From a virus (taxonomy: Duplodnaviria > Caudoviricetes), in the IMG/VR virus record IMGVR_UViG_3300031555_001437: 64,000 nucleotides of DNA. One strand, given 5' to 3'. Positions 1,493 through 43,113 of this stretch are shown here, in pieces. The notes below the pieces were generated by a model. That model was not told the DNA's origin and made no database searches. It was given only the letters and a program-made list of their open reading frames with translations. How positions within the stretch are numbered: the first letter of the stretch is position 1; every line of letters begins with the position of its first letter. The position numbers and the translations under genes were made by a program.

Positions 1493-1527
1493 ATGTCCGA
1501 CACAACAAAATGAAAGAGGGAATGGTT

Positions 1528-1908
1528 ATGTCCACAAAAGAAAACTTCGTGTTCTATGCCAGCTGGCTAGATGCTATCAACGCCATGGAGAAGGCCCAGG
1601 GCGAAGCCGTCGCAGATAAATTTGCACGACAAATAATTCAATATGGAGTAACTGGTGAGCTAACAACAGACAACGAGATTATACGCGGTTTTATTGACGC
1701 ACTCTGTAAAGACCTAATCCACAAATCCAAGAACCGTTACAAAGCCTGCAAGGCTAACGGCCAGCAGGGAGGCAGACCAGTGCAGCACGACCCAGATAAC
1801 ATTAAGGCAATGTACACCGCTGGAATGACTTATCAAGAAATTGCGAAAGAACTTAATTGCTCCGTTCGCACTGTACAGAGAGCGCTTACCGAGGAGGATG
1901 AAATTTGA
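1528..1908 (+). CDS. DUF6291-like replication-initiator N-terminal domain fused to a C-terminal HTH
   Basis: FVFYASW...RYKACKANGQQGGRP signature, then GMTYQEIAKELNCSVRTVQRAL helix-turn-helix; RBS favours ATG 1528. Confidence 0.7.
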   Translation: MSTKENFVFYASWLDAINAMEKAQGEAVADKFARQIIQYGVTGELTTDNEIIRGFIDALCKDLIHKSKNRYKACKANGQQGGRPVQHDPDNIKAMYTAGMTYQEIAKELNCSVRTVQRALTEEDEI

Positions 1909-2141
1909 TGGCTGAGAGAGTGTACGAGATTAGATGCGGAGACAAGTTCACGCTTAACAATGCTGCCGCGAAGAAGATGTGTGGTTGGTCCATCAAACGC
2001 TTGCCGCTTGGTGAGCGTATTTACCCAGGAGTGATTTGCGCCGAAAAGATCAAGCGACGTTGGTGGCAGTTATGGAAACCCAAATATGTTTACGCAAAAT
2101 TCATATATGTAAGAGAGGATGCTAAGTTATGGGCAGTGTAA
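1905..2141 (+). CDS. Hypothetical phage protein
   Basis: Coupled to the previous gene, GAGGAGG RBS. Confidence 0.65.
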   Translation: MMAERVYEIRCGDKFTLNNAAAKKMCGWSIKRLPLGERIYPGVICAEKIKRRWWQLWKPKYVYAKFIYVREDAKLWAV

Positions 2142-2154
2142 AGGAGTATAACAA

Positions 2155-2505
2155 ATGAACGGTGTAGAAATTTTAAGCTCAGAAATTATATATGAAACTA
2201 CCATGTCGTGGTTGCCGTTTTTTATTACCATTGGGATTTGTGCGGTGATCGGATTTGTAGCTGGCGGACAGGGTACGTTCGGATTTGATGTGGTTGACGG
2301 TGTGTTTGGAGCCCTTACGGGAGTGATGGCGGGAGCAATTTTAGGTCTCTTGATATCTGGTATGACAATTCGCCAAACAGATGAAATCGCATACATAAAA
2401 CACAAAGTCACCATCGACGACTCCGTCTCAATGAACGAGTTCTTAGACAAATACGAAATCCTTGATCAAGAAGGCAAGATCTATACAGTAAAGGAGAGAG
2501 AGTGA
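2155..2505 (+). CDS. Hypothetical membrane protein (2 TM segments)
   Basis: AAGGAG RBS; two hydrophobic stretches. Confidence 0.75.
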   Translation: MNGVEILSSEIIYETTMSWLPFFITIGICAVIGFVAGGQGTFGFDVVDGVFGALTGVMAGAILGLLISGMTIRQTDEIAYIKHKVTIDDSVSMNEFLDKYEILDQEGKIYTVKERE

Positions 2506-2765
2506 TGGAAAGATACACAGACGCATGGGATAGAATATCTCATAAAGTTGTAATGTGGAACTTACCCTGCGAACCAGGCACGACATTTGAATGCACACAA
2601 AATGTTGTTGAAGACATCATAGTGTCGCTTCCGCATATGTTTAGAAAATATAAGGAAATGCGTGGCATAGAAATGACCTTGGATATTGATGAGGCGTATT
2701 ATGACTCTGAAACGCATGAGAAGTGGTATCGTGTGAACTATAAGGCAAAGGAGAACTCACAATGA
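2502..2765 (+). CDS. Hypothetical phage protein
   Basis: Overlapping stop/start, AAGGAG RBS. Confidence 0.7.
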   Translation: MMERYTDAWDRISHKVVMWNLPCEPGTTFECTQNVVEDIIVSLPHMFRKYKEMRGIEMTLDIDEAYYDSETHEKWYRVNYKAKENSQ

Positions 2766-3082
2766 ATTGTGTAGATAATGAATGTCGCCACTTACGCACT
2801 GGTTTTGTCAACGGTTACTATGATAACGTATGTGGTCTCACTGGAAGTGCAATTCCAGATGATATTGACGTAACACAATGTAAAAACTTTTTGCAGGCTC
2901 ACACTTGTATAGATTGTATTCATTCTTCAATAACCATTTACGAGACTGGCACAATTGATGATATTGAATATCGTTGTCCGTTTCAAAATAACAAAATGAT
3001 TTATGATGACTCAAATCCTTACGCAAGACATTATGAAGACGTTCCAGAGTGCAATATTGGAAAGTTTCAAAAGGAGAACTGA
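2762..3082 (+). CDS. Cys-rich hypothetical protein
   Basis: ATGA overlap, AAGGAG RBS, multiple Cys/His clusters. Confidence 0.7.
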   Translation: MNCVDNECRHLRTGFVNGYYDNVCGLTGSAIPDDIDVTQCKNFLQAHTCIDCIHSSITIYETGTIDDIEYRCPFQNNKMIYDDSNPYARHYEDVPECNIGKFQKEN

Positions 3083-3435
3083 TGATAAATACCCGTAAAC
3101 ATCTAAGACAACTACAAATTGTTCAAGCTCGCATCAAAAAATGCAGAGCGTCAATTGCGGCTCTGAACCCACCTAGACCAGACTCATTTGAAATCAGTCG
3201 CAATGTATATCATTGGTTAACTGCTTTGTATTATGGTGTTCAACCAGATATGTCTCTTATGTATGATAAAAAGTTGACTAAGTTAGATGCACCAGCAAGC
3301 GAATACTTGCGTAAACTTGGAGAGTATTTTGTGAATGCGGCAAATTATTATGATGCAAAACGAATATACGACGCAGAGCTAAACAAGCTAAAAACAGAAG
3401 AGCGTCGCTTAAAAGAAAGGATTGGTATTGATTAA
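3082..3435 (+). CDS. Hypothetical phage protein
   Basis: AAGGAG RBS before the ATG at 3082 (MINTRK...). Confidence 0.7.
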   Translation: MINTRKHLRQLQIVQARIKKCRASIAALNPPRPDSFEISRNVYHWLTALYYGVQPDMSLMYDKKLTKLDAPASEYLRKLGEYFVNAANYYDAKRIYDAELNKLKTEERRLKERIGID

Positions 3436-3437
3436 TA

Positions 3438-3656
3438 ATGAAATGCAGAATTGTTCAAGTTGAAAATTATTACCAGGCTCAAATTTTAGTGCCATGTACG
3501 GCATATGGACGCAGTGCAGAACCAATCGAAAGTACTACGTGGGAGGATATTTATTGTGGAGCAAAGTACAGAAGTGTACATGCTGCAAAAATTGCACTTG
3601 AGGAATATGTTTACGAACTTAGAAAGCCTCGCGTTGTAGAAGAATTTGAACTGTAA
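3438..3656 (+). CDS. Hypothetical phage protein
   Basis: Tightly packed ORF in the operon. Confidence 0.65.
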   Translation: MKCRIVQVENYYQAQILVPCTAYGRSAEPIESTTWEDIYCGAKYRSVHAAKIALEEYVYELRKPRVVEEFEL

Positions 3657-3669
3657 AGGAGACAACAAA

Positions 3670-3879
3670 ATGAATATATCTGGAATTTGCCCATACGAAA
3701 CTCCTTGTGGCTGGTGTTCCAAGTGGGACAAGAAGTGTGATGAGAAGATTGGTACAGACAAAACCGTTACTGCTCCTTGTGCTAATTGTGAGAACCTCGG
3801 CTCAAATACAAACTACTGCGCAATTTGTTGGGCACATAATTTTGAATCATTTAAAGCAAAGGAGAATAGACATGGCTAA
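3670..3879 (+). CDS. Cys-rich hypothetical protein
   Basis: AAGGAG RBS; CPYETPCGWC and CxxC motifs. Confidence 0.65.
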   Translation: MNISGICPYETPCGWCSKWDKKCDEKIGTDKTVTAPCANCENLGSNTNYCAICWAHNFESFKAKENRHG

Positions 3880-4171
3880 TAACGCATATAAGCGTGGTCT
3901 TCGAAGTGAATTACCGTTATATAACGAAACTGATTCCAACGTGGCCTATCTCAAAAGTGGATATGTCATTCCTTTATCTAAAGAAAATAACAAAACTCCA
4001 GACCCGTTTGGCCACTGCGCCAACTGCGTATGTCTTGAGGATTGCGTCTTTACTAATAACAATGTCAACAATTGCGAATACCACCAAGAGTTGCTTAATG
4101 ACATTCAAGAATATATTAACAAGAAGATATACGAATATTTAACAGGAAAGGACGCTAAAAGCAATGACTAA
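3872..4171 (+). CDS. Hypothetical protein with Cys cluster
   Basis: AAGGAG RBS supports ATG 3872 rather than 3707. Confidence 0.65.
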   Translation: MANNAYKRGLRSELPLYNETDSNVAYLKSGYVIPLSKENNKTPDPFGHCANCVCLEDCVFTNNNVNNCEYHQELLNDIQEYINKKIYEYLTGKDAKSND

Positions 4172-4406
4172 CCTTGATATCATCAAATACCTCGCCGCCA
4201 ACAATCCAACTCGTCTTGCTGAATTTCTCGACGACATCTACTGTGTCGCCTGGAACAACGGTGCTTACGCGCAGTTCCACATCGACGACGTTGACGTTCT
4301 GTCTGATGAACTTGAATTCACAGAGAGCAACTGGCTCAATCAAACAGCGTCAGCAAACGACTTCTTTTTGGAAGCCGAACTTGAAGAATGGAGAAACAAA
4401 GTATGA
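4164..4406 (+). CDS. Hypothetical phage protein
   Basis: Overlapping ORF with RBS. Confidence 0.65.
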   Translation: MTNLDIIKYLAANNPTRLAEFLDDIYCVAWNNGAYAQFHIDDVDVLSDELEFTESNWLNQTASANDFFLEAELEEWRNKV

Positions 4407-4615
4407 ACCTTAAAGAAATTCACGCATATCTAAACGAGGATGGCACATATATCCTTGAGGCTCTTACCGATGTAATCGATGTATACGGCAACGCCATTCC
4501 AGCCAAAGTCACATCGCAACGCGCCGTCATTAAGGTTTCAGTTCTTCACGACGGTTATTCAATTACAACGGAGGACAAACAAAATGACGTTCAAATGGAA
4601 GAAATCCACTTCTGA
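4388..4615 (+). CDS. Hypothetical phage protein
   Basis: Packed ORF; likely start at ATG 4403. Confidence 0.6.
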   Translation: MEKQSMNLKEIHAYLNEDGTYILEALTDVIDVYGNAIPAKVTSQRAVIKVSVLHDGYSITTEDKQNDVQMEEIHF

Positions 4616-4835
4616 TAATAATTTCGAATTTGACTGGGCAAGAATATTCGTAATGCCAACGGAGTCTGGCGAAGTTCAGATTTATTACGGCGATGAGTCT
4701 TGTGTAGTCAAAAATCTTAGTGTGCAAGATATTGCCGCAAAGTTCAAAGCGCACAGTAACGAGTTTAGTGAACGGATGATATTTAAGACTGAAGTTAAAA
4801 CGTTAATAGAAAATATATTAAAGGAGAACGCATGA
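4584..4835 (+). CDS. Hypothetical phage protein
   Basis: GGAGG RBS before ATG 4584. Confidence 0.65.
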   Translation: MTFKWKKSTSDNNFEFDWARIFVMPTESGEVQIYYGDESCVVKNLSVQDIAAKFKAHSNEFSERMIFKTEVKTLIENILKENA

Positions 4836-4996: not shown

Positions 4997-5009
4997 GGAG
5001 AATTGATTT

Positions 5010-9514: not shown

Positions 9515-9646
9515 AAACCAGAGACTACTTAAGTAAAACTTCAATTCTTACGCAGTGTCCCTACCAACTACATACCCTTATACTCAAGCTACTAAAACTG
9601 ACAACTACTTAGTTGTAAACAAACTGTAAATAATTTACAGCGTATC

Positions 9647-9675
9647 TTGACAAATTGCTCATCTTATGTTATAAT
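9647..9675 (+). promoter_or_regulatory. Consensus SigA promoter with extended -10
   Basis: TTGACA 9647-9652, 17-bp spacer, TG-n-TATAAT 9667-9675. Confidence 0.9.
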
Positions 9676-9710
9676 ATCTCCAGTAACACGACAGAATGAA
9701 AGGAAATGGT

Positions 9711-10262
9711 ATGGACTTAGTTAATATAAGTAAGTTTGTTAGTCTGATACTTCGTCACAAGCCAGAGGTTATCGGTATATCTCTTGATAAATACGGATGG
9801 GCAAATGTTGATGAATTGGTGCGTGGTATTCAAAGCAAATATCCTGGTTTCACAAAATTCCACCTAGAAGATATAGTTGCGAATGATGATAAGCAAAGAT
9901 ATTCATTTAGTGATGACAAACTGTGTATAAGAGCAAATCAAGGTCACTCAATTAATGTAGATGTTGAACTCAAAGAGGCGCAGCCGCCAGAGTTTTTGTG
10001 GCACGGCACTGGTCAAAAATACGTGCAAAGTATCTGCAACAGTGGATTATTGTCTAAGTCAAGACTATATGTTCATTTGTCTGCAGATATGCGTACTGCC
10101 ATCAATGTCGGCAAGAGACATGGCGATGTTGCACTGTTTAGGGTTGACGCTGAGCAAATGTACAAAGACGGATTCAAGTTTTATTTATCTAATAATGGAG
10201 TATGGTTAACCAAAGAGGTCCCAGTTAGATATCTTGGTGGGACAATTGTGGTAAAGGAATAA
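9711..10262 (+). CDS. kptA: RNA 2'-phosphotransferase (Tpt1/KptA family)
   Basis: SLILRH, DDKQRY, IRANQGHS, LWHGT, RLYVHLS and NGVWLT motifs all present. Confidence 0.93.
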   Translation: MDLVNISKFVSLILRHKPEVIGISLDKYGWANVDELVRGIQSKYPGFTKFHLEDIVANDDKQRYSFSDDKLCIRANQGHSINVDVELKEAQPPEFLWHGTGQKYVQSICNSGLLSKSRLYVHLSADMRTAINVGKRHGDVALFRVDAEQMYKDGFKFYLSNNGVWLTKEVPVRYLGGTIVVKE

Positions 10263-10935: not shown

Positions 10936-11368
10936 TAAAGAGCTTATAGAGAGATATCCGTATCTGCTTCCGCGCAACGTTTGGACGGACAAAGTTGACG
11001 ATGATTATGATTATTCTTGGACGTTAGCAGATCAAGCGCCAGATGGTTGGCGAGAATTGTTTTTGCAGATGTGCGAGGAAATTAGAGAGCCGTTAATCGA
11101 GGCAAATTATCTCAACGAGTTTAGATTTTCGCAAATCAAAGAGAAATTTGGCACGTTGAGGGCATACTCGTTTGGCGCACCACGAGAGGTTCACAATATT
11201 ATTTCAAAATATGAGCGCATGTCTGCTCGTATGTGCATCAAGTGTGGAGCCACAGCGACAAAAATATCTCGCGGATGGATATCTCCTTGGTGTGAAGAGC
11301 ATGCGTCGCTAATTAATGACGACATGATTGATATTGATGAGTGGTTTAAAGAGGAGGAAGAATTATGA
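10919..11368 (+). CDS. Hypothetical phage protein (QIKEKFGxLR family)
   Basis: GW...QIKEKFGTLRAY...CIKCG...C motif. Confidence 0.75.
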   Translation: MTKTDNKELIERYPYLLPRNVWTDKVDDDYDYSWTLADQAPDGWRELFLQMCEEIREPLIEANYLNEFRFSQIKEKFGTLRAYSFGAPREVHNIISKYERMSARMCIKCGATATKISRGWISPWCEEHASLINDDMIDIDEWFKEEEEL

Positions 11369-12183
11369 ATGAAGAGCATGGATATGGTGCCGTATTATCA
11401 GCGCCCGATGTGAGAGATTATGTTGCGATGGCGGTTAAAGGAGATTTTCCTGCCGAATTTGAGTTGGATATGCCAAAGGTCAAAGATCAGGGTGTTACTA
11501 GCTCATGCGTCGCCCACGCGTTGTCTACAATTGTAGAGTATTTTGTTCACAAAGAAACTGGCAAAGACGCAGTAATGAGCACTGGTTACATTTATGGAAA
11601 CCGCAGATTGACAACTCATTCAAAAAAGGGATTGATTACACGAGATGCAATTAAAACCGTTGTTGAGTATGGTGATGTTCTTGACGTTGAGTTTCCGCTC
11701 AATGTAGAGGTTCCTTATGCTATTGATAAATTTGAAGAGAAGGCAGATGAACTTTTCAAGACTGGACGTCCTTTTCGATTCAAAAAGTACTTTCAATTAA
11801 TGAATCAAAACGCAATCAAGGCGTCTATTATGGTAAATGGTCCAGCATTGATGGCTATGAAGTGGTATGACGGTATTCGGATTAGAGATGGCGTTATGAA
11901 TTTAGACAAAGCTAAAACATCCTACAAATATTCACACTGTATGGTTATTTATGGTTGGAATGAAATTGGGTGGAAGGTACAGAACTCCTGGGGCCCATTA
12001 TGGTCGGATAATGGTCGTGTAATTATTCCGTATGACGCTCCTATTCGAGAAGTTTGGGGCATTACAGATGAAGATACGTGTGGTGATTTGACTATTAAAA
12101 AGCCATTTAGTAGCAAAGTTGGGGCTACTGTTGCAAAAGTTTTAAATTTCGTTGCGTCGATTTTTTATAATCTGAAAGGGTGA
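11365..12183 (+). CDS. Papain-like cysteine peptidase (C1 family)
   Basis: VKDQG..SSCVAHA (catalytic Cys), HCMVIYGW (His), QNSWG (Asn). Confidence 0.9.
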   Translation: MNEEHGYGAVLSAPDVRDYVAMAVKGDFPAEFELDMPKVKDQGVTSSCVAHALSTIVEYFVHKETGKDAVMSTGYIYGNRRLTTHSKKGLITRDAIKTVVEYGDVLDVEFPLNVEVPYAIDKFEEKADELFKTGRPFRFKKYFQLMNQNAIKASIMVNGPALMAMKWYDGIRIRDGVMNLDKAKTSYKYSHCMVIYGWNEIGWKVQNSWGPLWSDNGRVIIPYDAPIREVWGITDEDTCGDLTIKKPFSSKVGATVAKVLNFVASIFYNLKG

Positions 12184-12751: not shown

Positions 12752-15526
12752 TTGAAATTACAAAAAACGCATATATATGCGCTGAAGCTGCACAGCAGTT
12801 TACTGGACGACTATAAATGGAATTATTCCACCACGATAGAGGAGCTGAGAAGAGGATCTTGCGCTGTCGTCAGTCTAAACGACAGCCAGGTTCTCAGGTG
12901 GTTGGCGAAGATTAACGGCACGGAGAACTCAGATGCGATAGCTAAGGTTATCAAGTCTGAGATTCGAAGACTAAAAAGAGAGCCGTCTACAAAAGAGAAT
13001 AAGCGTTTAATCAGTGAAAAATATAAGCAGCTCTATAAAACACGCTTCACAACCGACTATATGATGGTTGTTTTTGATAAAAAATCTCACTACGACAAGG
13101 CGCGCAAAGGGTTTACAATCACGGTTGACGGCGTGACGACAACTTATCGTAGATTTATAGGCACAGCGAATTCTATCAAGAAGAATACTATTATTTTTGT
13201 GAATGTTGAGGTATACGACCGTCTCATGTGGCACATGAACAACGGTCGTAACATGAGTAAGCCCGCTGTGCCTGCAAAATTGGAGGCGTATCTTTCTTTG
13301 GCGTGCTCTGGAAGTATTCCGCTTAAGGAGTTTCCGAGAATTATGGTCGTAGATGATTGCATTACGACTGCTGTTGTTCCAGAATTGATACACTTGGATT
13401 ACACTGATATGAGTGTGGATGAGCCAGTTATGGAGCTAATGCGTGACCAAGAGATAGAAATTAATGGGTCTGATGGCTTTGGTCTTATGACGCCAGAGTT
13501 TTCGCGCAGGGTAAATGCAGAACTGGGTGGAGACCCTGCTGAGTGCGTGACTTTTAACTCTCGGTGTGCGTTTGTTAAGGGCATGTTAGTGCCGTTTGAC
13601 TTCGTAGCTTTTGCTGAGCAAAAGGCAAATGGCGACTATTGCGTCAAAGACGCATGGGGAGCCATGAGAGATATTAGAGAATATGATGTAATTTTGACTG
13701 TTTCCATGTTGAAGTTATGGGACAGTTACGCCTCTTGTGAAGAATATGTTCGCAATTGCCACGAACATGATTTTGATTTTTGTGTTGCAAAAACTGCGCC
13801 ACATGTTTTGGACTCGCAGCAAACATCTAACTATCAGTTCTTGCAAGATTTCACAAATTTAACCGATGATGACATTGATGAACTTGTAGCTCCGACCGTC
13901 AAACACATTAAAGATGCTCTTGGCTTAGATTGGCGCAGATTATTGATGTATATGTGCGGCAAGGGCTTGGACGAGACTACTTATCAATATGCAGAACCCA
14001 TAGCTCGTGCTATCATGGCGTGCCCAGATATCATTAATGACAAATATATTAGAATGCGCATCGAAAAGATGATTGCAAAGAGTATCAAGGACGCTAAAAT
14101 TGGTGTGCTTCAGTTTCATGGCAACTTTCAGATCATCACTGGAGACCCATATTGTTTGGCTGAGTCTATTTTTGGACTTCCAAAGGTTGGTTTGCTCAAA
14201 GGCGGAGAGGCGTATAGTAAATATTGGGTTGACCGCGGGGTTGATTTGGTAACTGCGTTCCGTGCCCCAATGATTGTCCAGAATAACGTTGCGCAATTGA
14301 AAATTGTACACAATTCTGATATAGATTATTGGTTTCAGCATATTAAAAGTACAATTGTGCTGAATAATTTTAGTGACATTTGTATGAGAGAGTGCGGATG
14401 TGACTACGACGGCGATACATTTATGACTACAGACAACAGAGTGTTGCTGAATAGATATCGTCATTTGCCTGCTATCGATTGCGTTTCGAAGAAGCCAGAT
14501 AAGATTGTACCTACTGAAAGCGACTTTATTGCAAGTGAGAAACGCGGATTTAACGACCAAATTGGCGCCATAACCAACAAAGGAACTGGTCAGAAGAATA
14601 TGCAAGCCGCGTATGCAGATGGAACTGAAGAGAGTGACATTCTTGCGTATCGTGCAATTTGTTGTGTGCAGTTGCAGCAGTCGGAGATTGATGCTGTCAA
14701 AGGAGCATGGAGCAGACCAGCTCCTAAACACTGGTTTGATTATAAGTCGAACATAATTTCTGATGAAGACGACGATGAAATCGTCAAAACAAAAGAGCTA
14801 AACCAGAAATTAGTAGCTAAAAAGCCGTATTTCTTCATTTTTAACTACGATTATTTGCATAAAGAGTACACAAAATACATTAAAAACGTCAGTGCAAACT
14901 CACAGTTGCGGTTTGGTATTACGCTCGACGAGCTGCTGTCAAAAGCAGAACATTCGGACTTAGAGCGCGAATTTATTGATAATTATTATAAATATTTGCC
15001 AGTTGATAGCTCTCCTGGTGTAATAAATAGAATTTGTTGGAAGATAGAGGATGAATTTAAGGATACAGACGTACTGCCAGATGCTAATTTTGACTACCAT
15101 GTATTGACTTCTAATGCAACATATACAAAAGCAGAATTTGCGGCGGTTGAGGCTTTGTATTCAGAGTATATCCACACGGTTCGAAGCATAAAAAAGCAGT
15201 ATGCGCAAAAGCAAAACGACGTTGCAGACAATGATATGACCGCTGATTTGTATGTTGTTAAAGAGGCATGGAGAGAAAAATGCCTGTCCGTATGTAATAA
15301 CGAGAAGGTTTTGACGAACATTTTATTGGAAATTTGTTATAATTCAAACAATTCGAAGGCGATTGTGTGGGATATTTGCGGCGAGCAGATTGTAATGAAC
15401 TTGCTTGAGAAGAATGGCGGAGTGTTTAAGTTTCCCAGTCGTAACGCGGATGGAGACATTGAGTTTGACGGAGAAAAGTTTGCTATAAGTGAGGTGAAGT
15501 TTGATGAAGAATGTGACGTTCAGTGA
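12752..15526 (+). CDS. yonO: Single-subunit two-barrel RNA polymerase, YonO-like (related to eukaryotic RdRPs)
   Basis: 924 aa; SDGFG, KGML, FRAP and catalytic CDYDGD (DxDGD) motifs; position upstream of HU/terminase as in SPbeta. Confidence 0.85.
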   Translation: MKLQKTHIYALKLHSSLLDDYKWNYSTTIEELRRGSCAVVSLNDSQVLRWLAKINGTENSDAIAKVIKSEIRRLKREPSTKENKRLISEKYKQLYKTRFTTDYMMVVFDKKSHYDKARKGFTITVDGVTTTYRRFIGTANSIKKNTIIFVNVEVYDRLMWHMNNGRNMSKPAVPAKLEAYLSLACSGSIPLKEFPRIMVVDDCITTAVVPELIHLDYTDMSVDEPVMELMRDQEIEINGSDGFGLMTPEFSRRVNAELGGDPAECVTFNSRCAFVKGMLVPFDFVAFAEQKANGDYCVKDAWGAMRDIREYDVILTVSMLKLWDSYASCEEYVRNCHEHDFDFCVAKTAPHVLDSQQTSNYQFLQDFTNLTDDDIDELVAPTVKHIKDALGLDWRRLLMYMCGKGLDETTYQYAEPIARAIMACPDIINDKYIRMRIEKMIAKSIKDAKIGVLQFHGNFQIITGDPYCLAESIFGLPKVGLLKGGEAYSKYWVDRGVDLVTAFRAPMIVQNNVAQLKIVHNSDIDYWFQHIKSTIVLNNFSDICMRECGCDYDGDTFMTTDNRVLLNRYRHLPAIDCVSKKPDKIVPTESDFIASEKRGFNDQIGAITNKGTGQKNMQAAYADGTEESDILAYRAICCVQLQQSEIDAVKGAWSRPAPKHWFDYKSNIISDEDDDEIVKTKELNQKLVAKKPYFFIFNYDYLHKEYTKYIKNVSANSQLRFGITLDELLSKAEHSDLEREFIDNYYKYLPVDSSPGVINRICWKIEDEFKDTDVLPDANFDYHVLTSNATYTKAEFAAVEALYSEYIHTVRSIKKQYAQKQNDVADNDMTADLYVVKEAWREKCLSVCNNEKVLTNILLEICYNSNNSKAIVWDICGEQIVMNLLEKNGGVFKFPSRNADGDIEFDGEKFAISEVKFDEECDVQ

Positions 15527-16301: not shown

Positions 16302-16436
16302 AATTCTCACACGACAAAATGAATAGGAAAAACCTACGGAAATACGTGTTGGCCCTTTTTCTGTAGTTAATGGTAAGGAATAACACGGGTTTTACCTGTT
16401 GTATTTAAATATAAGCGAATCAAAAGGAGAACAATT

Positions 16437-17060
16437 ATGGAAGAACTAAACAAAGTATTGCAAGGAGCACAGGACGCAGCGCTCAGTTATCAGTTACCTA
16501 ATCCAGGATTGAGAGATTATTATCGCGACGAAGCAGAGAGAATTTATTGGGTGGACGATGAGATTACTGGCAACCTGCTGGACCTTGTTAAGATGATTAT
16601 TCGTTGTAACAAAGAGGACAAGGATATTCCTGTAGCTGAACGCAGACCGATCAGAGTATTTATTGACTCTCCTGGCGGCGATATTACTTCTCTGTGGACG
16701 ACAATTAAGACCATTGAGTTGAGCAAAACTCCAATTCACACGATCAATTATTGTGGATGTCATAGCGCAGCTGCTGACTTACTCGCTGCTGGCCACAAGA
16801 GATTTGCGCTGCCTGGCACTACAGCAATGATTCACAATGGTAGCTGTGGATTTCAGGGTCAGGTTGATGTGGTTGAGTCTACGAAGAAATATTATGACAA
16901 GCTCAGCAAGAGAATTACAGAATATTTCTTGGCGCATACGAAGGTCGACCCGAAGGTGTTTAAGAAGAAGGCGGCTTTCGATTGGTACTTCGACGAGCAG
17001 GAGATGCTTGAAAATGGGCTAATCGACGAGATTGTTACTGATTTAGATACTTTACTATAA
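16437..17060 (+). CDS. clpP: ClpP-like serine protease
   Basis: FIDSPGG, CHSAA (Ser), MIH (His), DWYF (Asp), GLIDEI. Confidence 0.88.
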   Translation: MEELNKVLQGAQDAALSYQLPNPGLRDYYRDEAERIYWVDDEITGNLLDLVKMIIRCNKEDKDIPVAERRPIRVFIDSPGGDITSLWTTIKTIELSKTPIHTINYCGCHSAAADLLAAGHKRFALPGTTAMIHNGSCGFQGQVDVVESTKKYYDKLSKRITEYFLAHTKVDPKVFKKKAAFDWYFDEQEMLENGLIDEIVTDLDTLL

Positions 17061-17096: not shown

Positions 17097-17172
17097 GGGC
17101 CCATAGCTCAGCTGGGAGAGCACTACCCTTGCAAGGTAGGGGTCGTGGATTCGACTTCCACTGGGTCCACCA
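17097..17172 (+). tRNA. tRNA-Ala(TGC)
   Basis: Cloverleaf GGGCCCA/TGGGTCC, anticodon arm CTACC-CTTGCAA-GGTAG, encoded CCA. Confidence 0.93.
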
Positions 17173-17253
17173 GGTAGCCAGTGTGAACGCGGGTTTGGCT
17201 CCGTAGTGCGGTAATGGGGAGAGGCGCACTTAAATATCCACTTTCCACCATAT

Positions 17254-17332
17254 GACGCCATCGTCTAGCCTGGTCTAGGACATCGCCCTTTCACGGCGGT
17301 AACTGCGGGTTCAAATCCCCATGGCGTTACCA
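17254..17332 (+). tRNA. tRNA-Glu(TTC)
   Basis: GACGCCA/TGGCGTT acceptor, TCGCC-CTTTCAC-GGCGG anticodon arm, CCA; irregular T stem. Confidence 0.88.
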
Positions 17333-17334
17333 AT

Positions 17335-17410
17335 GACAACATAGCTCAGTCGGTAGAGCAGCAGACTGTTAATCTGCGGGTCGTAGGTTCAAGCCCTACT
17401 GTTGTCGCCA
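17335..17410 (+). tRNA. tRNA-Asn(GTT)
   Basis: GACAACA/TGTTGTC, GCAGA-CTGTTAA-TCTGC, CCA. Confidence 0.95.
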
Positions 17411-17413
17411 TAT

Positions 17414-17490
17414 GGCTCTATAGTGTAACTGGTTAACATATCTGCCTGTCACGCAGAAGAGTTCGGGTTCAAGTCCCGATAGAGTCGCCA
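17414..17490 (+). tRNA. tRNA-Asp(GTC)
   Basis: GGCTCTA/TAGAGTC, TCTGC-CTGTCAC-GCAGA, CCA. Confidence 0.93.
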
Positions 17491-17551
17491 ACCCTTTTGG
17501 GTTTTATATAGTAGGTTTTGTGAGTGAGCCAACCAAAAAACTCTCATATAT

Positions 17552-17627
17552 GCTGGCGTGGCGCAACTGGCAGCGCACCTCACTTGTAATGAGGATGTTG
17601 GGGATTCGATTTCCTCCGCCAGCTCCA
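17552..17627 (+). tRNA. tRNA-Thr(TGT)
   Basis: GCTGGCG/CGCCAGC, CCTCA-CTTGTAA-TGAGG, CCA. Confidence 0.93.
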
Positions 17628-19559: not shown

Positions 19560-21864
19560 ATGCCTCGTGCTATGGGACAAACAAAAAAGAAGTCTATAAC
19601 AACAAATTCTCAAGCAGTTGCTGAGTCTAAAGAGGATTATCTGTGCTATTGCTGTGGAGAAACAAAAAGTAGGTCATCTTTTTATACAACTACTGACCCA
19701 TTTAACAGCGTTGGTATCAATCCTTTTTGCAAACTCTGCATAGAGAGAATTGCCAGAAACTACAATGAAAAAACAAGAATATATGGAGAAGTAACGAAGG
19801 TTTCTCTGTGTAATGCCCTTGAGAGAATGGACCTTCCATATATAGAGCGCCTGTGGGAAGCGTCGTATAAAGAGGTGCATGACCCTACTCTTGATAGACC
19901 GAAGACAAATATATGGTCTGCATATATTACAAATGTAAAGCTGCCGCAATACAACGGTATGCGTTGGAAAGACGGCGATACATTTAAGGAGATTTCTAGT
20001 ACAAAACCTTTCGATGTGCAAGAAAATGCGTTAGATCCAGAATCTGAACAATATTTAACATATAAAAAAAACAAGAAGGCAGTTATCGACTTTGTTGGAT
20101 GGGACCCATTTAGAACCTATCCAAAAGAGGATGAGCTGCCTCTTTTATATGCGCAACTTTTGACGTTTTTAGACGATGAGACTAAAAATGATGGCCAAAA
20201 GCTCAACGCGGTTATACAGATTGTAAAATTATTTAATCAAGCAGAAAAAATTAATGCCGCAATTGATGAGTTGCAGATAGATACAAAAAATATATTGGCA
20301 AACACTGCAGCCGTTAAAACATTGCGCGATGCAGCGAGTAAGGCAATTAGCGATGCAAATGCGCTCGCTAAAGATAATGGGATTAAAAAATAGTTCCTGC
20401 GTAAAGTGATTTACGTGAAAAAATCCATCGAATTGCTGGAAGTCCTTAAAGCTAAAGTAACTACAACATAGTTTGAAAAGACAAGTGTGAATGTTTGAAA
20501 ATATTTTAGATATATAGGTAATCAGCAGCCAAGTCCCTAAATTTAATTAAACATGGGAAAGGTTCAACGACTATCCGTAAGGAGTAGAATAGTAAGCGTT
20601 TGACTATTCGAAGTGGTGGACTCACACAACAAAATGAATGTGATGAAGATATAGTCTACACTCGTAACGAAAGTTCGAGGAGGTGTATACCTCAACAGGG
20701 AGTAGCGTCCTTTAATTATTTTCCAAAAATATATTTTAAAGAAGGTAGAGTCGTGACATATAGTGAGTATATTCAAAACATTTTGAATACAAGGGGAAGA
20801 TTTGGGTGCGGCGAAGCGTATCACGAAAGACATCACATAATTCCGAGATGTATGGACGGTAACGACGACGAGTCGAATTTAATCGATCTTTATGCCAGAG
20901 AGCATTATGAGGTTCATAAATTGCTGGCAGAAGAAAACCCAGAAAACGAAAAATTGTTATTTGCTTGGTGGGTTATGTCAACTAAAAGTTCAAAAACAAA
21001 CGAAAGATATGAATTAACAGCCGAAGAATATGAATTGTCAAAGACGGCTTTAAGTATAGCACAAAGCAAAGCAAAAAAGAAACAGTTTATAAACAAAGAA
21101 AACCATCCTATGTTTGGCAAAATTCATTCTGAAGAAAGTAAGGATAAAATGAGTAGAGCCAAACGTGGCAAGCCTTCGTCTAAAAAAGGAAGACCATTAT
21201 CAGAAAAGCAAAGAGCGTCACTTGCTCAAATGAGGATTGGCTCAAAATGGTCCGAAGAACAGCACGAAAAAATGGACGGCAGATACGCGAACGGCAATAG
21301 TACATGTTGTGTTCCTGTATATTGCCCAGAGCTTGGCGAATCTTTTTGGGGACTGCAAGAAGTTTGTGATAAATATGGTTTTTCAAAACCCAATCTAAGC
21401 AAATGTTTATATGGAGAAAGAAAACATTGCGGTAGGCACCCAGTCACAGGTGAACAATTAACGTGGCAACGTTTGGAAAATAATTAAGTTAAATATATGG
21501 TAGTGTAAACTTTAACAACAACAAATCTAAGGGCGCGAATACTTTGTCTGGAAAGATGAAAGAGTTAGTTCAGATTGGTTTACGTGACGCAAAAATAAAT
21601 ACTTATGACATTGGTACATGTGAGGGAATGAAACAAGTGGCTCTTATTAATGAAGAGTGTAGACACAAACAGATTGGGTATGATGAAAATATAGCTCAAG
21701 AAATAAAAGACATTAAGGTTGAACTTGTTGAAACACTCACCAAAGAGCGAGACGAGGCTATTGAAACAGCTCGAAAGCTTCTTCTCGAGAACAAAGACTT
21801 AAAAGATTTCTTATTATCAAAGCAATTGGTTAATGAAGATTTCGAGGTGATTGCAGATGAGTAG
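19560..21864 (+). CDS. Intron-split gene upstream of terL, join(19560..20383,21501..21864), 395 aa; candidate terminase small subunit
   Basis: Joining gives an in-frame ...LAKDNG-I-SVNFNNNKSKGANTLSGKMK...; N-terminal CxCC...CKxC zinc finger; overlaps the terL start. Confidence 0.8.
20384..21500 (+). mobile_element. Group I intron (IA-like) with homing endonuclease
   Basis: P AATTGCTGGAA, Q AATCAGCAG, R GTTCAACGACTA, S AAGATATAGTC; P1 GGGATT/AGTTCC with a U-G pair at the 5' splice site; terminal G at 21500. Confidence 0.9.
20753..21487 (+). CDS. Intron-encoded HNH homing endonuclease with NUMOD-type DNA-binding repeats
   Basis: ERHHIIPRC...NLIDL..REHYEVH; NHPMFGKIHSEESKDKMS; GTG 20753 with GAAGGT RBS. 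Confidence 0.88.
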   Translation: MTYSEYIQNILNTRGRFGCGEAYHERHHIIPRCMDGNDDESNLIDLYAREHYEVHKLLAEENPENEKLLFAWWVMSTKSSKTNERYELTAEEYELSKTALSIAQSKAKKKQFINKENHPMFGKIHSEESKDKMSRAKRGKPSSKKGRPLSEKQRASLAQMRIGSKWSEEQHEKMDGRYANGNSTCCVPVYCPELGESFWGLQEVCDKYGFSKPNLSKCLYGERKHCGRHPVTGEQLTWQRLENN

Positions 21865-23830: not shown

Positions 23831-25351
23831 ATGGCAGAGAGTAAAAATATGACAAAACAAAATTCAGAAAACTTAAAGTTTACTGAAAATCTAGAGAACG
23901 TCAAACAATATGCGGCAGCGATTGATGACGTTTTGCAGCTTGTTGATTTAACCAATACAACAACCAAAACATGGACTGTATTTAATAAGGACACTCTTAG
24001 AACTTATTTGCAGACACCATATTCGTCTAACTCTCAAACCCAGCTTAGAAATTTGTCTAGGTTTTTGCAGACATTGAGTTTTCCGTTCTTTAGAATTATT
24101 AGATATTTTGCCAGCCTTCCTGATTTTAGCGCATATAAAATAAATTTAGATTTTAGTCTTACAGAAGAAAATGACGAAGAATCTATGTTGCAAGACTACG
24201 AAGATGCGTGTAGATTTGTTAGAAAGATGAATCTCGACATCAATATGTTTAAGCTTTTGATGATAGCGTGGAGAGAAGGAATTGTATATTTTCAACCATA
24301 TCAAGATGATGACGGCACATTACTGATGATGCCGCTCGATTCTCAATATTGCAGAATTAGTTCTATTGGATATAATAATCTTCTTCATGTTGCATTCGAT
24401 TTTTCATTTTTTAATGGATCAAACGCATTTTATCTTGATGTTTGGGATAAAGAGTTTAAGACTAAATATAATAAATATCAGAGAGATAATACGTTGCGCT
24501 GGCAAGAACTTGATACTGCTCGTGCATTGAAAATCGATATAAGCGATATGGATTTAATTATCAGTCCGTTTGCTTCATTGTTTGAAGGCCTGATTGATCT
24601 GATTGATCTGCAGTCCCTAATGGCGGTTAAGGAGTCTTTGGATATTTACAAACTTTTGGTTATGAAGATTCCGCTGTTGGATTCTAAGACGCCAGATGAT
24701 TTAGCTTTAAGTTTAACTCTTGCACAAAAGTTTTATGCTAAAGCTCTAGGCATTTTGCCTGCGGAGATTGGGCTTGTTCTTTCTCCTGGTATGGATATTG
24801 ACAGCGTTTCTTTTGATAAGAACGCTACTTCTGACACAAACTCTATTGCTGATAGTTATCAGAATTTAATGGAGATGACTGGTATTTCTCAGATATTTGA
24901 TAGCAGTCGTTTAACTGGAAGTACATCTGTTACAATGAGTATGATGACAGACGCACTACTTGCCACTCGAGGTATCATGAAGCAGATAGAGGCTTTTGTT
25001 AATGAAAGAATTCTAATGGAATACTCCAGTTCTAAAGCCTACATTAAATTTATTGATACTACTACTTATACCAAGGCTGAAAGAATCAAAGAAATTAAAG
25101 AGGCTGCTTCGTCTGGTCTTCCAGTAAAGCTTGAATGGATGATACTCGAAGGATATGACCCAATTGAGGCTATGGCTAGCGACTGGCTAGAAACAAAGCT
25201 TGGACTTGCCGTAAATAAATGGGTAAATCCAGTTAAAACAAGCTACACTCAGGGCCCTGGGCAGGGAGAGACTGGTGCTCCAACAAAAGATGATGGCGAA
25301 CTCACGGATGACGGCGAAGCCAGCCGCGACAAGAGAGACGCTGTTGGTTAA
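23831..25351 (+). CDS. Portal protein
   Basis: 506 aa directly after terL; ends P..TSYTQ...G.P as in SPbeta-like portals. Confidence 0.8.
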   Translation: MAESKNMTKQNSENLKFTENLENVKQYAAAIDDVLQLVDLTNTTTKTWTVFNKDTLRTYLQTPYSSNSQTQLRNLSRFLQTLSFPFFRIIRYFASLPDFSAYKINLDFSLTEENDEESMLQDYEDACRFVRKMNLDINMFKLLMIAWREGIVYFQPYQDDDGTLLMMPLDSQYCRISSIGYNNLLHVAFDFSFFNGSNAFYLDVWDKEFKTKYNKYQRDNTLRWQELDTARALKIDISDMDLIISPFASLFEGLIDLIDLQSLMAVKESLDIYKLLVMKIPLLDSKTPDDLALSLTLAQKFYAKALGILPAEIGLVLSPGMDIDSVSFDKNATSDTNSIADSYQNLMEMTGISQIFDSSRLTGSTSVTMSMMTDALLATRGIMKQIEAFVNERILMEYSSSKAYIKFIDTTTYTKAERIKEIKEAASSGLPVKLEWMILEGYDPIEAMASDWLETKLGLAVNKWVNPVKTSYTQGPGQGETGAPTKDDGELTDDGEASRDKRDAVG

Positions 25352-25380
25352 ACACGACAGAATGATTTGGAGGTGCACCA

Positions 25381-28927: not shown

Positions 28928-29671
28928 GTGGTGTTAACAGTGGAAAAAATATGTGGCATATATTGTATTGAAAATACTAATAATAATAAAAAATATATTG
29001 GACAATCTGTTGATATATATAAAAGGTGGAAAGCACATAAAAGCGAGCTAAATCAACATAAACACGTGAATGATTATTTGCAACGTGCATGGGATAAATA
29101 TGGAGAATCTTACTTTAGATTTTATATTTTAGAGGCGTGCAACATATTTCAACTCGACGAGTTAGAAATAAAATACATTGAACAATTTAATACAACAAAC
29201 GTTCAGTATGGGTATAATCTAAATGCTGGCGGAAATGGTAATCAGTCTCCAAGTGAATATGTTCGACATAAAATGCGAGAAAACCACGCAGATGTTTCTG
29301 GAGAAAACAATCCTAATTATGGGAAACACATGTCTGACGATGTAAAGCAAAAAATGATTGCCAATCGTCATACTCCAAAAGGAAGTGAACATATTAACTA
29401 CGGCAAGACTTTTTCTGATGATACTAAGTTAAAAATGAGCATAAATCATGCAGATTTTTCTGGTGAAAATCATCCGAGGTGTCGTTCTGTATATTGTCCA
29501 GAGCTTGATAGAGAGTTTTGGGGAGCTAAAGAGGTTGAGTTAGAATTAGGTATTGACGCTACATATGTATCCGCTTGTCTAAGAGGCAGGCAGAAATCCG
29601 CTGGTAAACACCCCATAACTGGTGAAAAGTTACACTGGGTAGATGCTAAACAAAAAATAGCAGCATCTTAA
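28928..29671 (+). CDS. Free-standing GIY-YIG homing endonuclease
   Basis: GIYCIEN...KYIGQS...RW..H, E...I, GYN, NUMOD-like GENNPNYGK repeats; AT-rich relative to neighbours. Confidence 0.9.
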   Translation: MVLTVEKICGIYCIENTNNNKKYIGQSVDIYKRWKAHKSELNQHKHVNDYLQRAWDKYGESYFRFYILEACNIFQLDELEIKYIEQFNTTNVQYGYNLNAGGNGNQSPSEYVRHKMRENHADVSGENNPNYGKHMSDDVKQKMIANRHTPKGSEHINYGKTFSDDTKLKMSINHADFSGENHPRCRSVYCPELDREFWGAKEVELELGIDATYVSACLRGRQKSAGKHPITGEKLHWVDAKQKIAAS

Positions 29672-29714
29672 CACGACAAAATGATTTATATGCGGAGAAA
29701 AAGGAGAAATTATT

Positions 29715-30266
29715 ATGGCAAATACAAAAAAGTCAGCAGTCGAAACCGATGAAATTATGGAACAGGAGCCAGTAACTGAGGTTGTTACTCCTGCTCCTAA
29801 AAAAGTTAACAAGCCTAAGCATGACCCAAGCGAACTTATTCCCTGCAGAAGTGTTCGCTTTGGAGAGCTAAGACTTATTGGTCCAAAGACTCGTATGCCT
29901 TATAGTTGGGCGAACGAGGGTGACTTTAGAGATGTTGAGTATCAAGACTTGGTGTCCTGGAAAGCTCTTGGCTCTCGTTATCTGTTCGAACCTATGATTA
30001 TTATCGAGGACGAGGATTTGAGAGAGGAGTGGAAGTCTGATTTTGGAGAGCTTTATGACTCGTTGCAGCAGGTTGACATTAAGGAGATGTTTAAGTTACC
30101 TCACAGAAATTTTGTGGCGCAACTTAAGAAGCTTCCTGACGGTATGAAAGCCACTGTACAGAATATGGCATATTCTATGATTCAGAACGGCACTCTTTAC
30201 GACCTGAGAACCATTAAGGCTATTGACGAAACTCTCGGTACAGAACTGATTATGATGATTGGCTAA
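29715..30266 (+). CDS. Virion morphogenesis protein (post-capsid)
   Basis: Synteny; AAGGAG RBS. Confidence 0.6.
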   Translation: MANTKKSAVETDEIMEQEPVTEVVTPAPKKVNKPKHDPSELIPCRSVRFGELRLIGPKTRMPYSWANEGDFRDVEYQDLVSWKALGSRYLFEPMIIIEDEDLREEWKSDFGELYDSLQQVDIKEMFKLPHRNFVAQLKKLPDGMKATVQNMAYSMIQNGTLYDLRTIKAIDETLGTELIMMIG

Positions 30267-39376: not shown

Positions 39377-39392
39377 TTAACTAATCTACTCT

Positions 39393-39426: not shown

Positions 39427-39449
39427 AAATAACTGTGGAGGATAAACGT

Positions 39450-41540: not shown

Positions 41541-41559
41541 TATATAGTAGTTTAATAAA

Positions 41560-41594
41560 GGGGAGTAGACTATTATAGCCTATTCCCTGATTTT
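41560..41594 (+). terminator. Putative intrinsic terminator
   Basis: GGGAGTAG...CTATTCCC stem followed by TGATTTTT. Confidence 0.5.
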
Positions 41595-41617
41595 TACACT
41601 TCAGAGAGGTGGAAACG

Positions 41618-42310
41618 ATGAGTCTTTTCAAGGTATGTAGAGGAGCAGAGGGCAATCTACCATCCACACTTACAGATGGATATGCGTATTTTTGTACTGA
41701 TACTGGCTCCTTTTATATTGACCATAAAAACACGAGCAACACGCTCGTCAGATCTAAAATTTCCGCTAGATATGCGGAGAAACTGCGCTATATAAAAAAT
41801 GGCCAAACAATTGAGATTGATGCTGCTGATATCTTGACCGCAAGCAACGCTGTAACTACTATCGGTACAGCTACTACAAGCAAGGCTGGCTTTATGTCTA
41901 CGGCGGACAAAACGAAGCTCGACGGTGTGGCCGCTGGCGCAGAAAAAAATATTGTTTATGTTGGTCCTACTGCACCAACAGACCCGAACATTAAAGTTTG
42001 GATCAATACGTCCGAAGAGGGCACTGGTGTTATTCCAGTATTGCCAAGAATTACTACAGTTACACTGACATCAAGCAAATGGACTGGTTCGGCTAGCCCA
42101 TATAGTCAGGTCGTGACTGTTAATAGTGTTACTGCAAACAGCAAGGTTGACCTGCAGCCTACAGCTGCGCAGATAGTCAGTCTACAGAACGCAGACATTG
42201 CGCTGATGGCAGAAAACAATGGTGGCACAGTTACTTTTTATGCTTTTGGCGGCAAGCCCAGTTCTAATATGTCTATGCAGGTACTCTTAACGGAGGTGGC
42301 ATACGTATGA
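41618..42310 (+). CDS. Short fibre protein; N-terminus paralogous to 39450
   Basis: LFK..RG.E.NL....DG..YFC.DT..FYID...KI.A.YA.KLRY shared with 39450. Confidence 0.7.
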   Translation: MSLFKVCRGAEGNLPSTLTDGYAYFCTDTGSFYIDHKNTSNTLVRSKISARYAEKLRYIKNGQTIEIDAADILTASNAVTTIGTATTSKAGFMSTADKTKLDGVAAGAEKNIVYVGPTAPTDPNIKVWINTSEEGTGVIPVLPRITTVTLTSSKWTGSASPYSQVVTVNSVTANSKVDLQPTAAQIVSLQNADIALMAENNGGTVTFYAFGGKPSSNMSMQVLLTEVAYV

Positions 42311-42810
42311 TTAGTGGAAATATGATTGGGTCATATAGCCAAATCGGCAAGACGTTTATAATTGTCGATGAAAACGGAAATGAGATTGCTGGAGTTGTTA
42401 CTGATACCCCAGTTATCTTTACTGCGACAGACAACGACGTCCGCGAAGGTTCTGTTTACGCAAGTGATGATGGTATATCTACTGGTTCTAAAGTCATACC
42501 GAGTTATCACACAAATCACGGAGCAAAATTGGTTCCAGCAGGTAGTAAATTTACTATAAGATTATCTAAACTAGATTGTTATGATTATACAAACTTACAC
42601 GCTATGATTTGTGCCTGGAACACAAATTTATCGGATAGCGTTGCCACAGACAGAATTGTCGTGTTAAACGCCGTATATCCAGTTCAATCTACCGAGGCCA
42701 TTTCAAGTGTAACAAAAGACGATAGTACGAAAAGCATAATCCTTGGAATTACAAACGATACGGATTCTCCGTTTGTTATAAGATATATGACTTATAAAGA
42801 AATTGAGTAA
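42307..42810 (+). CDS. Hypothetical structural protein
   Basis: ATGA overlap, GGAGG RBS. Confidence 0.6.
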   Translation: MISGNMIGSYSQIGKTFIIVDENGNEIAGVVTDTPVIFTATDNDVREGSVYASDDGISTGSKVIPSYHTNHGAKLVPAGSKFTIRLSKLDCYDYTNLHAMICAWNTNLSDSVATDRIVVLNAVYPVQSTEAISSVTKDDSTKSIILGITNDTDSPFVIRYMTYKEIE

Positions 42811-42832
42811 AATTTTTAGGAGGATAATTCCC

Positions 42833-43060
42833 ATGGCAGTTAATTATTATTACAATTACGCAATCGTTGACAGAGAGAGCATGATGTGTGTGGAGGTTCG
42901 TACCAGCACATTAGATCAGAGCGATGCATCTGACGAGTATGAAATTTATGTAACTATTCCAGAATATAACGAGGAATATATTTGCAAATTTTATAATGAG
43001 GCAGACGGTCAGTTTTATTATGATATAGAATACACTCAGATTTTTGATCCCAACGCCTAA
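42833..43060 (+). CDS. Small acidic protein, possible fibre chaperone
   Basis: AGGAGG RBS. Confidence 0.6.
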   Translation: MAVNYYYNYAIVDRESMMCVEVRTSTLDQSDASDEYEIYVTIPEYNEEYICKFYNEADGQFYYDIEYTQIFDPNA

Positions 43061-43113
43061 AAACAAAACACAATAAAATGATTAATTTTAACAAAAGATA
43101 AGGAGGTTACGCT

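Follow-up and report, generated by a model that had tools for sequence, protein, structure and literature searches.

A repeated 14-nt intergenic motif as a candidate promoter of a YonO-type phage RNA polymerase

Genomic locus and copies of the motif

The subject of this analysis is a 14-nucleotide (nt) motif, ACACRAYARAATGA, repeated in a 64,000-nt stretch of DNA from an uncultured gut phage of the Caudoviricetes (IMG/VR record IMGVR_UViG_3300031555_001437; the whole stretch is hereafter called the window). The window encodes a YonO-type single-chain two-barrel RNA polymerase and, overlapping with it, a putative partner protein; motif copies were found at the heads of early operons, at the head of the late module, in an intron and between genes (Table 1).

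The search for exact matches revealed seven copies in the window and none in 100 dinucleotide-preserving shuffles. A preliminary description of this DNA had listed six exact copies, all of which are real; the copy at 20624 had been overlooked. It had also placed the motif on the sense strand only, four copies near stop codons and two copies just 3' of the -10 boxes of sigma-A promoters. These statements agree with the present data: 7/7 exact matches are located on the + strand, the copies at 16309, 25352, 29671 and 43068 lie 0–7 nt from a stop codon according to the table of open reading frames (ORFs), and the two early copies follow -10 boxes of promoters that are both perfect. The labels of the portal, GIY-YIG and YonO-like polymerase genes were confirmed by Pfam/PHROG profile matches. 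ORF 42803-43060, a putative fibre chaperone gene, gave no PHROG match, although the neighboring genes contain tail-fibre repeats. At the copy at 25352, the sequence GGAGG starts 4 nt on (3 nt intervening), and a sigma-A promoter is absent nearby.

Three look-alikes were rejected. The one-mismatch sequence at 3660..3673 (+), previously counted as a member, has the ordinary context of a ribosome-binding site and start codon: an AAAGGAG Shine-Dalgarno sequence, an A-rich stretch of 8 nt and the ATG that starts ORF 3670-3879. Core-only sequences at 4574 and 17649 show the same Shine-Dalgarno/start-codon layout.

Table 1. Motif copies and associated features of the window.
Feature	Position	Strand	Context
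Sigma-A-type promoter, TTGACA-17-TATAAT	1464..1492	+	12/12 match; fused to the copy at 1500
Motif copy ACACAACAAAATGA	1500..1513	+	7 nt past the -10 box of the early sigma-A promoter; then ribosome-binding site and ATG (1528)
Sigma-A-type promoter, TTGACA-17-TATAAT, TG-extended	9647..9675	+	12/12 match; fused to the copy at 9686
Motif copy ACACGACAGAATGA	9686..9699	+	10 nt past the -10 box; heads the operon from kptA to the YonO-like polymerase
YonO-type single-chain two-barrel RNA polymerase, 924 amino acids (aa)	12752..15526	+	Pfam RdRP PF05183, E 2e-9; phrog_8308
Partner gene, 266 aa	15501..16301	+	Overlaps the polymerase stop; predicted helical bundle, winged helix and CxxC..CxxC zinc ribbon
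Motif copy	16309..16322	+	7 nt past the partner-gene stop (16301); heads the 114-nt leader and late module
Leader after the copy at 16309	16323..16436	+	Blocks common to G001 and G002: TAGGAAAAACC ... CTTTTT.TGTAG.TAATGG ... TTTTCCTA
Motif copy	20624..20637	+	P8 hairpin loop of a group I intron; 5' of the HNH endonuclease ORF (about 20745-21487)
Motif copy, stand-alone	25352..25365	+	Directly past the portal stop (portal ends at 25351)
Motif copy, stand-alone	29671..29684	+	Base 1 overlaps the stop of the GIY-YIG ORF by 1 nt; 30 nt before ORF 29715-30266
Motif copy ACACAATAAAATGA, stand-alone	43068..43081	+	7 nt past ORF 42803-43060; 32 nt before ORF 43114-44223

Lineage versions of the motif in related phages

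Relatives were chosen through the polymerase, which is encoded at 37–80% identity by 24 IMG/VR loci. Complete genomes with terminal repeats were used for the family counts, and the genomes G001, G002 and G004 were analyzed in full. Since the loci were found via the polymerase, its cognate gene is present by construction in all motif-bearing genomes (G001–G007). The strict 14-mer occurs in 19–31 copies per genome in G001, G002 and G004. A relaxed family pattern gave 19 matches in G001 and 33 in G002 (0 and 3, respectively, with reversed-pattern controls), while ACAATACAAAATTA with ≤2 mismatches gave 43–54 copies in each of the genomes G003–G007 versus 3–7 in controls. The family consensus is ACA-NN-ACAAAAT-N-A, usually followed by TT. 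Conservation in YonO-encoding relatives, which the preliminary description had named as a check, was thus observed in G001–G007. In G004, a motif copy is positioned 40 nt before the ortholog of the window ORF 29715-30266.

Position 13 differs between lineages, being G in the window and G001, A in G002 and T in G003–G007. The TGA, TAA and TTA versions of the 14-mer number 7, 0 and 0 in the window, 19, 0 and 0 in G001, 2, 31 and 1 in G002, and 1, 0 and 27 in G004, respectively. A14 is invariant across all lineages. Positions 4–5 vary freely, and variation restricted to wobble changes, which would hint at RNA pairing, was not supported. The clade with a 38%-identity polymerase (G008) has a different word, AAATTAATAGAA, present in 22 exact copies in strand blocks. 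The motif sequence co-varies with the polymerase lineage, with only few independent changes. Judged from the sequences compared, the motif is a clade-specific signal that drifts with the polymerase lineage, one position having been switched in concert over dozens of copies.

Position of the copies relative to genes, tRNAs and introns

For placement counts, 84 copies were pooled from the window, G001, G002 and G004. Most of them (79/84) have the same direction as the local genes, and their orientation flips in blocks along each genome. Only 8 of the 84 copies lie inside ORFs of ≥100 aa (76/84 outside), though such ORFs span ~80% of the DNA. Motif discovery on intergenic DNA, also proposed in the preliminary description, left pieces of the motif as the only class of strongly enriched sense-strand words after the removal of ribosome-binding sites, sigma-A hexamers, tRNA arms and intron cores.

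In G001, the copies at 24089 and 146822 are located 12 nt past strong terminators and just before a ribosome-binding site and ATG, with no sigma-A promoter. Two copies in G001 (6740 and 9060) and one in G002 (54289) head tRNA clusters without an intervening ORF. Analysis with ARAGORN and Rfam did not confirm tRNAs directly abutting the copies; the tRNAs lie 150–440 nt downstream. Use of the ATG within the motif as a start codon or as the start of an upstream ORF was rejected: it is in frame with a gene only at 1500 and 9686, and at the other copies it opens short unrelated ORFs only. The motif does not appear to be translational, because the versions of G002 and G004 contain no ATG and because copies head tRNA clusters with no ORF in between.

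The copy at 20624 is located within a group I intron (20374-20679, Rfam RF00028). The motif was found in 3/5 endonuclease-bearing introns and in 0/13 other intron cores. In all three, the motif is found in the P8 loop, and the ORFs behind the respective cores belong to different families (HNH, LAGLIDADG and GIY-YIG). One of the G002 introns carries the TGA version, foreign to this genome, as expected if the mobile intron came from a phage of the TGA lineage. In general, these phages are unusually intron-rich, with endonucleases of the HNH, GIY-YIG and LAGLIDADG families; the intron-core word GATATAGTC occurs nine times in G002 (L035-L042), six times in G004 and twice in G001. In the window, the intron region 20374-21540, with the HNH ORF behind the core, forms an interruption between ORF 19560-20393 and ORF 21544-21864.

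The location of copies right after stop codons, together with their strand specificity, would also suit a specific sequence at which the phage polymerase pauses or terminates, similar to the T7 class II signal. Such a function appears extremely improbable: it would leave the phage polymerase without any promoter candidate, and it does not fit the copies at operon heads after sigma-A -10 boxes or before tRNA clusters and endonuclease ORFs. In addition, some copies directly follow a classical terminator, where this signal would be redundant. A separate arrangement was noted in G001 at 25118-25160 (L027), where a perfect + copy and a near - copy pair to form a 12-bp hairpin with a T-run behind it; it is located in a - strand gene block and may represent a motif-derived terminator or an element acting in both directions.

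Association with sigma-A-type promoters

The motif itself contains no -35/-10 pair and is not a sigma-A/sigma-70 promoter. No sigma-A promoter with a match of 10/12 or better was found within -60 to +54 for 53/84 copies. The other copies (31/84) are each joined to a sigma-A-like promoter, and three fixed registers (+4, -26 and -43) are preferred. In eight cases the motif starts 4 nt after the -10 box (register +4), in eight cases it lies in the spacer and shares ACA with the last three bases of TTGACA, and in three cases it stands directly before the -35 box and shares TT with TTGACA. The 11 copies of the last two kinds are not transcribable from the adjoining promoter because they lie upstream of the sigma-A start. 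Of the strong sigma-A-like promoters, between a third and half are accompanied by a copy on the same strand no more than 60 nt away, while <1 is expected by random placement.

In our reading, these fusions are compact dual promoters, through which transcription of one set of genes could pass from the host enzyme to that of the phage. Plastid genes that have a promoter for the plastid-encoded polymerase paired with one for the nuclear-encoded polymerase offer a loose analogy.

The phased link to the sigma-A hexamers, with ACA or TT of TTGACA shared, is the main support for another explanation, namely that the motif is a promoter element for host RNA polymerase redirected by a phage factor comparable to T4 gp55 or MotA. 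The frequency of motif copies at strong sigma-A promoters points in the same direction, as does the early gene 1528-1908 for a small DUF6291 protein with a region-4-like helix-turn-helix. Nevertheless, one appropriation geometry would be predicted and three different registers are seen, no gene with a recognizable sigma70 region 2 was found in G002 or G004, and the motif versions track the polymerase clade. Moreover, the ribosome-binding site begins 1–6 nt past the stand-alone copies, which leaves no room for the ~7 nt between a -10-type element and the start. Redirection of the host polymerase is therefore regarded as quite unlikely.

The overlap of 31/84 copies with core promoter regions is also compatible with an operator, at which a phage DNA-binding regulator would switch sigma-A promoters off or on. 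This function is very unlikely, given the 53 copies with no such promoter, the asymmetry of the site and its strict co-orientation with transcription, and the copies in introns before endonuclease ORFs or directly after stop codons. A separate site 5' of the two early promoters is a better operator candidate. There, TTGTAAAC words occur in tandem at a distance of 11 bp, in the window at 1430-1450 (TTGTAAACAA and TTGTAAACGA) and 9613-9633 (TTGTAAACAA and CTGTAAATAA), and in both cases the first word is exactly 34 nt 5' of the -35 box. Similar words (AATTGTAAA) are enriched in intergenic DNA of G001. The tandem words are a candidate operator of an early or lysogeny regulator.

Late module and the putative transcription start

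The window, G001, G002 and G004 all retain a motif copy where the late module begins, just past the polymerase and partner genes, each time in the version of the respective lineage. In the window, the copy at 16309 and its leader are followed by genes of a ClpP-like protease (16437-17060, the first late gene), five tRNAs (17097-17627; Ala, Glu, Asn, Asp and Thr), an HU-like protein and a yonJ-like exonuclease, the intron-containing gene, and genes of the terminase and portal. Six distinct G003-type genomes are unrelated upstream of the post-partner site and show identity from motif base 1 on into the leader. A strong, covarying hairpin begins at motif position 13 in four G003-type genomes (L005, L007, L008, L012 and L013 types), while the leader of L006, also of the G003 type, folds differently. 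The leader of the window shows a weakly supported long-range stem starting 1–2 nt past the motif.

At stand-alone copies, the ribosome-binding site starts 1–6 nt past the motif (25352 in the window, 24089 and 146822 in G001, and several copies in G002), with a distance of 1–4 nt at several of them, so transcription from these copies would have to start within the motif or a couple of bases from it. Given this closeness, the invariance of A14 and the leader stems that begin at positions 13–16, we infer a start at about motif position 13–15, around A14.

The same sites could be read at the RNA level, as a cis element just 5' of the ribosome-binding site that serves processing, stability or recognition by an RNA-binding protein or nuclease of the phage, including nut-like antitermination. 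This would fit the strictly sense-strand copies between stop codons and ribosome-binding sites in long operons. Transcripts of the sigma-A promoters fused in the +4 register, the commonest one, would start within the motif and have most of it at the 5' end; the early gene of the RNA 2'-phosphotransferase KptA/Tpt1, which follows the copy at 9686, is also consistent with a role in RNA. Furthermore, intrinsic terminators are not enriched upstream of the copies (10/84, as in controls), so most copies would be transcribed by read-through.

On the other hand, the 11 fused copies in the spacer or 5' of the -35 box would not enter the transcripts of those promoters, the copies at 24089 and 146822 of G001 directly follow strong terminators, and the homology blocks at the late module begin exactly at motif base 1. 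Cleavage in the P8 loop of the three group I introns would destroy the ribozyme, and no anti-motif RNA beyond chance was found in the window. The nut and put sites of phages lambda and HK022 are structured RNA elements, present once or twice per operon 3' of the promoter. This pattern was not observed here: the 14-mer has no dyad, and 19–54 copies occur per genome. Nut-like antitermination is thus disfavored by the excess of copies, by the untranscribed fused copies, by the lack of a boxB-like hairpin and by the copies in ribozyme cores. The motif is probably not an RNA processing site, and an RNA-level element of any of these kinds is considered unlikely.

Polymerase and partner protein

According to the tblastn analysis, the polymerase of the window is 25% identical to YonO of the phage SPbeta over half of its length and ~36% identical to those of c-st and Enterocloster phages; PMBT24 is also among the matches. 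No close relative of the polymerase was found in representative bacterial genomes. Among deposited phages, a DNA-level relative of the window was not found, except for a fragment of kptA. The latter is the first gene of the polymerase operon (9711-10262; RNA 2'-phosphotransferase KptA/Tpt1, Pfam E 4e-47), and apart from its DNA, no part of the region is similar to deposited phages; the similarity is to large Clostridioides phages.

The partner has ~170 homologs, none with a Pfam domain and many on contigs of 120–170 kb; the CxxC...CxxC motif is invariant. The AlphaFold model of the partner is confident (predicted local distance difference test 86.7, predicted template modeling score 0.78). Foldseek found nothing at E ≤ 0.001 for this model. 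VIA-align indicated similarity of the N-terminal bundle with PriX/RepB'-type bundles (Z 7.9 and 5.8) and of residues 90-213 with the winged helices of MCM8, ORC2, CRP and Fur (Z 6–7). The partner is a candidate specificity factor; the modeled winged helix and zinc ribbon are compatible with DNA binding, although they prove nothing. The overlapping arrangement with the partner gene is kept in PMBT24, while SPbeta has no partner.

Probable function of the motif

We consider it rather probable that the motif is the promoter, or the promoter core, of the phage YonO-type RNA polymerase, with transcription starting at its 3' end. This assignment is favored because the copies are genome-wide, co-oriented with genes and intergenic, and because the one-base version tracks the polymerase lineage. 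It is also favored by elimination, since no other strongly enriched word was found, a sigma70 region 2 was not recognized in G002 and G004, and the phage polymerase must start somewhere. The preliminary description had offered two possibilities; its polymerase promoter is favored by the comparative evidence, while its nut-like antitermination or processing site is disfavored.

Several points weigh against this assignment. The polymerase link rests on co-occurrence and co-variation within one clade; it is limited in this way because cultured phages with ~36% or 25% identical polymerases are without the motif. In PMBT24 (~36%), the motif is absent and no equivalent dominant word was found, and in SPbeta (25%) the motif is absent as well. 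In the stretch to which the only mapped YonO start is bracketed, no conserved sequence resemblance was found, and the link to this start is positional. The fixed-register fusions, described above for 31 copies, could point to a factor acting on host polymerase. The lack of terminator enrichment upstream of the copies is a further point, as are the middling scores of the fold matches of the partner (Z 6–8). In addition, the sequencing runs containing the window comprise animal faecal/gut metagenome DNA only, and no RNA runs were found among them.

Under the polymerase-promoter assignment, the host sigma-A polymerase would act first and use the two consensus promoters to transcribe the early operons, including that of the phage polymerase. 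Next, the phage polymerase would initiate at every ACA-NN-ACAAAAT-N-A site, possibly together with its overlapping winged-helix/zinc-ribbon partner, and RNA would start at or within a few bases of the motif 3' end, around the invariant A14. Besides its own operon, the phage polymerase would serve the late structural module, the tRNA clusters and the homing-endonuclease genes within introns. A sigma-A promoter and a motif copy precede the polymerase operon both in the window (9647-9699) and in G003-type genomes, which suggests self-amplification. Position 13 (G, A or T by lineage) may be a specificity base co-evolving with the polymerase. A more specific proposal, which remains tentative, is a two-component machine, in which the partner would serve the YonO-type polymerase as a specificity subunit resembling sigma or transcription factor B, and position 13 would set the lineage specificity.

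Comparison with known systems

In SPbeta, one YonO start (P_YonO) has been reported with no promoter sequence defined (Forrest et al. 2017, PMC5467207). It was assigned to position 2225998 of strain 168, between yonO/yonN and yonK (PMC5467207). Both phages contain a homologous polymerase, an HU-like gene, a non-coding leader, an exonuclease, a terminase and a portal, and the SPbeta order (yonO, yonN encoding HU, a non-coding gap with the YonO start, yonK, yonJ, terminase) is mirrored in the window. Like P_YonO, the copy at 16309 and its counterparts in G001, G002 and G004 come after the polymerase gene and open the late module. In contrast to the single start reported for SPbeta, there are seven copies in 64 kb of the window and 19–54 per genome in its relatives; here the early operons also carry the signal, and SPbeta lacks the overlapping partner gene.

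By published primers, the SPbeta start is bracketed only to 9906-10099 of L025. The sequence ACACAAAAC lies in this bracket, but its resemblance was rejected as support, because other SPbeta-like phages do not keep it: Goe11 and SPbetaL1 have a different sequence in this segment, while SPbetaL4 and L7 have a deletion of it. Upstream, at ~9815-9892 of L025 (alignment A3, columns 125-212), there is an invariant inverted-repeat block, ACTGATAT.TGGGATATCAGT, followed by TTCTC..CTAAT.TTCATTT. This block is kept in 8/8 SPbeta-like phages, including those with the downstream segment deleted, and is a better candidate than ACACAAAAC for the late-promoter region.

Late promoters of the AR9/phiKZ non-virion polymerases have the pattern 5'-AACA-N6-T-A/G(+1), with AACA at -11 to -8 (PMC5449584). 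Like the motif, they are short AT-rich elements with an ACA core and no -35 box, immediately 5' of the start and including it, and the separate small specificity subunit gp226 of AR9 parallels the idea of a partner. These enzymes have five subunits, whereas the polymerase considered here is a single chain and not a homolog of the split beta/beta' set. The spacing from ACA to T-N-A is 8 nt here versus 6 nt, and the AR9/phiKZ late-promoter pattern was not found in the motif. AR9 also needs uracil DNA and template-strand recognition. The likeness is one of design only.

A precedent is provided by the P23-45 proteins gp96 and gp64, single-chain two-barrel polymerases that each have their own short motif within ~30 nt 5' of mapped starts, present only in relatives encoding the enzyme (bioRxiv 10.1101/2022.12.01.518664). 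The short motif directly 5' of the starts of such a polymerase resembles the arrangement proposed here. The P23-45 promoters are backed by start-site mapping and chromatin immunoprecipitation sequencing, in contrast to the sequence comparison used here.

Promoters of T7, T3 and SP6 are 23 bp long and occur in many co-oriented copies per genome, with single-position specificity differences that co-evolve with the polymerase. The motif resembles them in copy number, co-orientation and single-base specificity; the T7-type polymerases have an unrelated fold, longer promoters and no fusion to host promoters. For the T4 introns, internal promoters of I-TevI and I-TevII were reportedly described by Gott et al. 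in 1988, to be used by host polymerase with phage factors. As in T4, a phage-specific expression signal is found in a group I intron ahead of a homing-endonuclease ORF, although here it is the P8 loop that contains the signal, with the ORF behind the ribozyme core.

Other features of the window

Gene 1528-1908, the first of the early genes, codes for a DUF6291 protein of 126 aa whose C-terminal part contains a sigma-region-4-like helix-turn-helix; the protein is a possible early regulator. The polymerase operon also contains a gene of a papain-family cysteine peptidase (11365-12183). A 69-nt periodic repeat (e.g., TTACTAGTATTGG, 10–11 copies) was found at 50795-52181 in ORFs 50676-51707 and 51709-52392 and probably corresponds to 23-residue repeats of tail or fibre proteins. 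The region 1-1400, before the first early promoter, has a G+C content of 0.49 versus ~0.40, and its ORFs are mostly on the - strand; it is possibly a different module. In PMBT24 (L054-L058), the word AACTGGGGGG occurs five times, on the sense strand and in intergenic DNA only.

Implications for the YonO family

The single-chain enzymes of the YonO type are related to the multisubunit RNA polymerases of cells and attract interest as models for an ancestral polymerase. Neither the promoter recognized by YonO nor its need for a helper protein was settled in the founding paper (PMC5467207), and our literature search found no promoter consensus for the family. The clade described here provides a compact candidate, 14 bases long and naturally present in dozens of copies per genome, together with a one-base difference between lineages that may act as a natural specificity switch and a conserved candidate helper gene, which makes promoter recognition by the YonO family directly testable in vitro. 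The fixed-register fusions suggest a simple handover of the same genes from the host polymerase to the phage polymerase. If the two-component proposal is true, the motif would be the first defined promoter of the YonO family, and its lineage versions would represent three natural, potentially orthogonal polymerase-promoter pairs.

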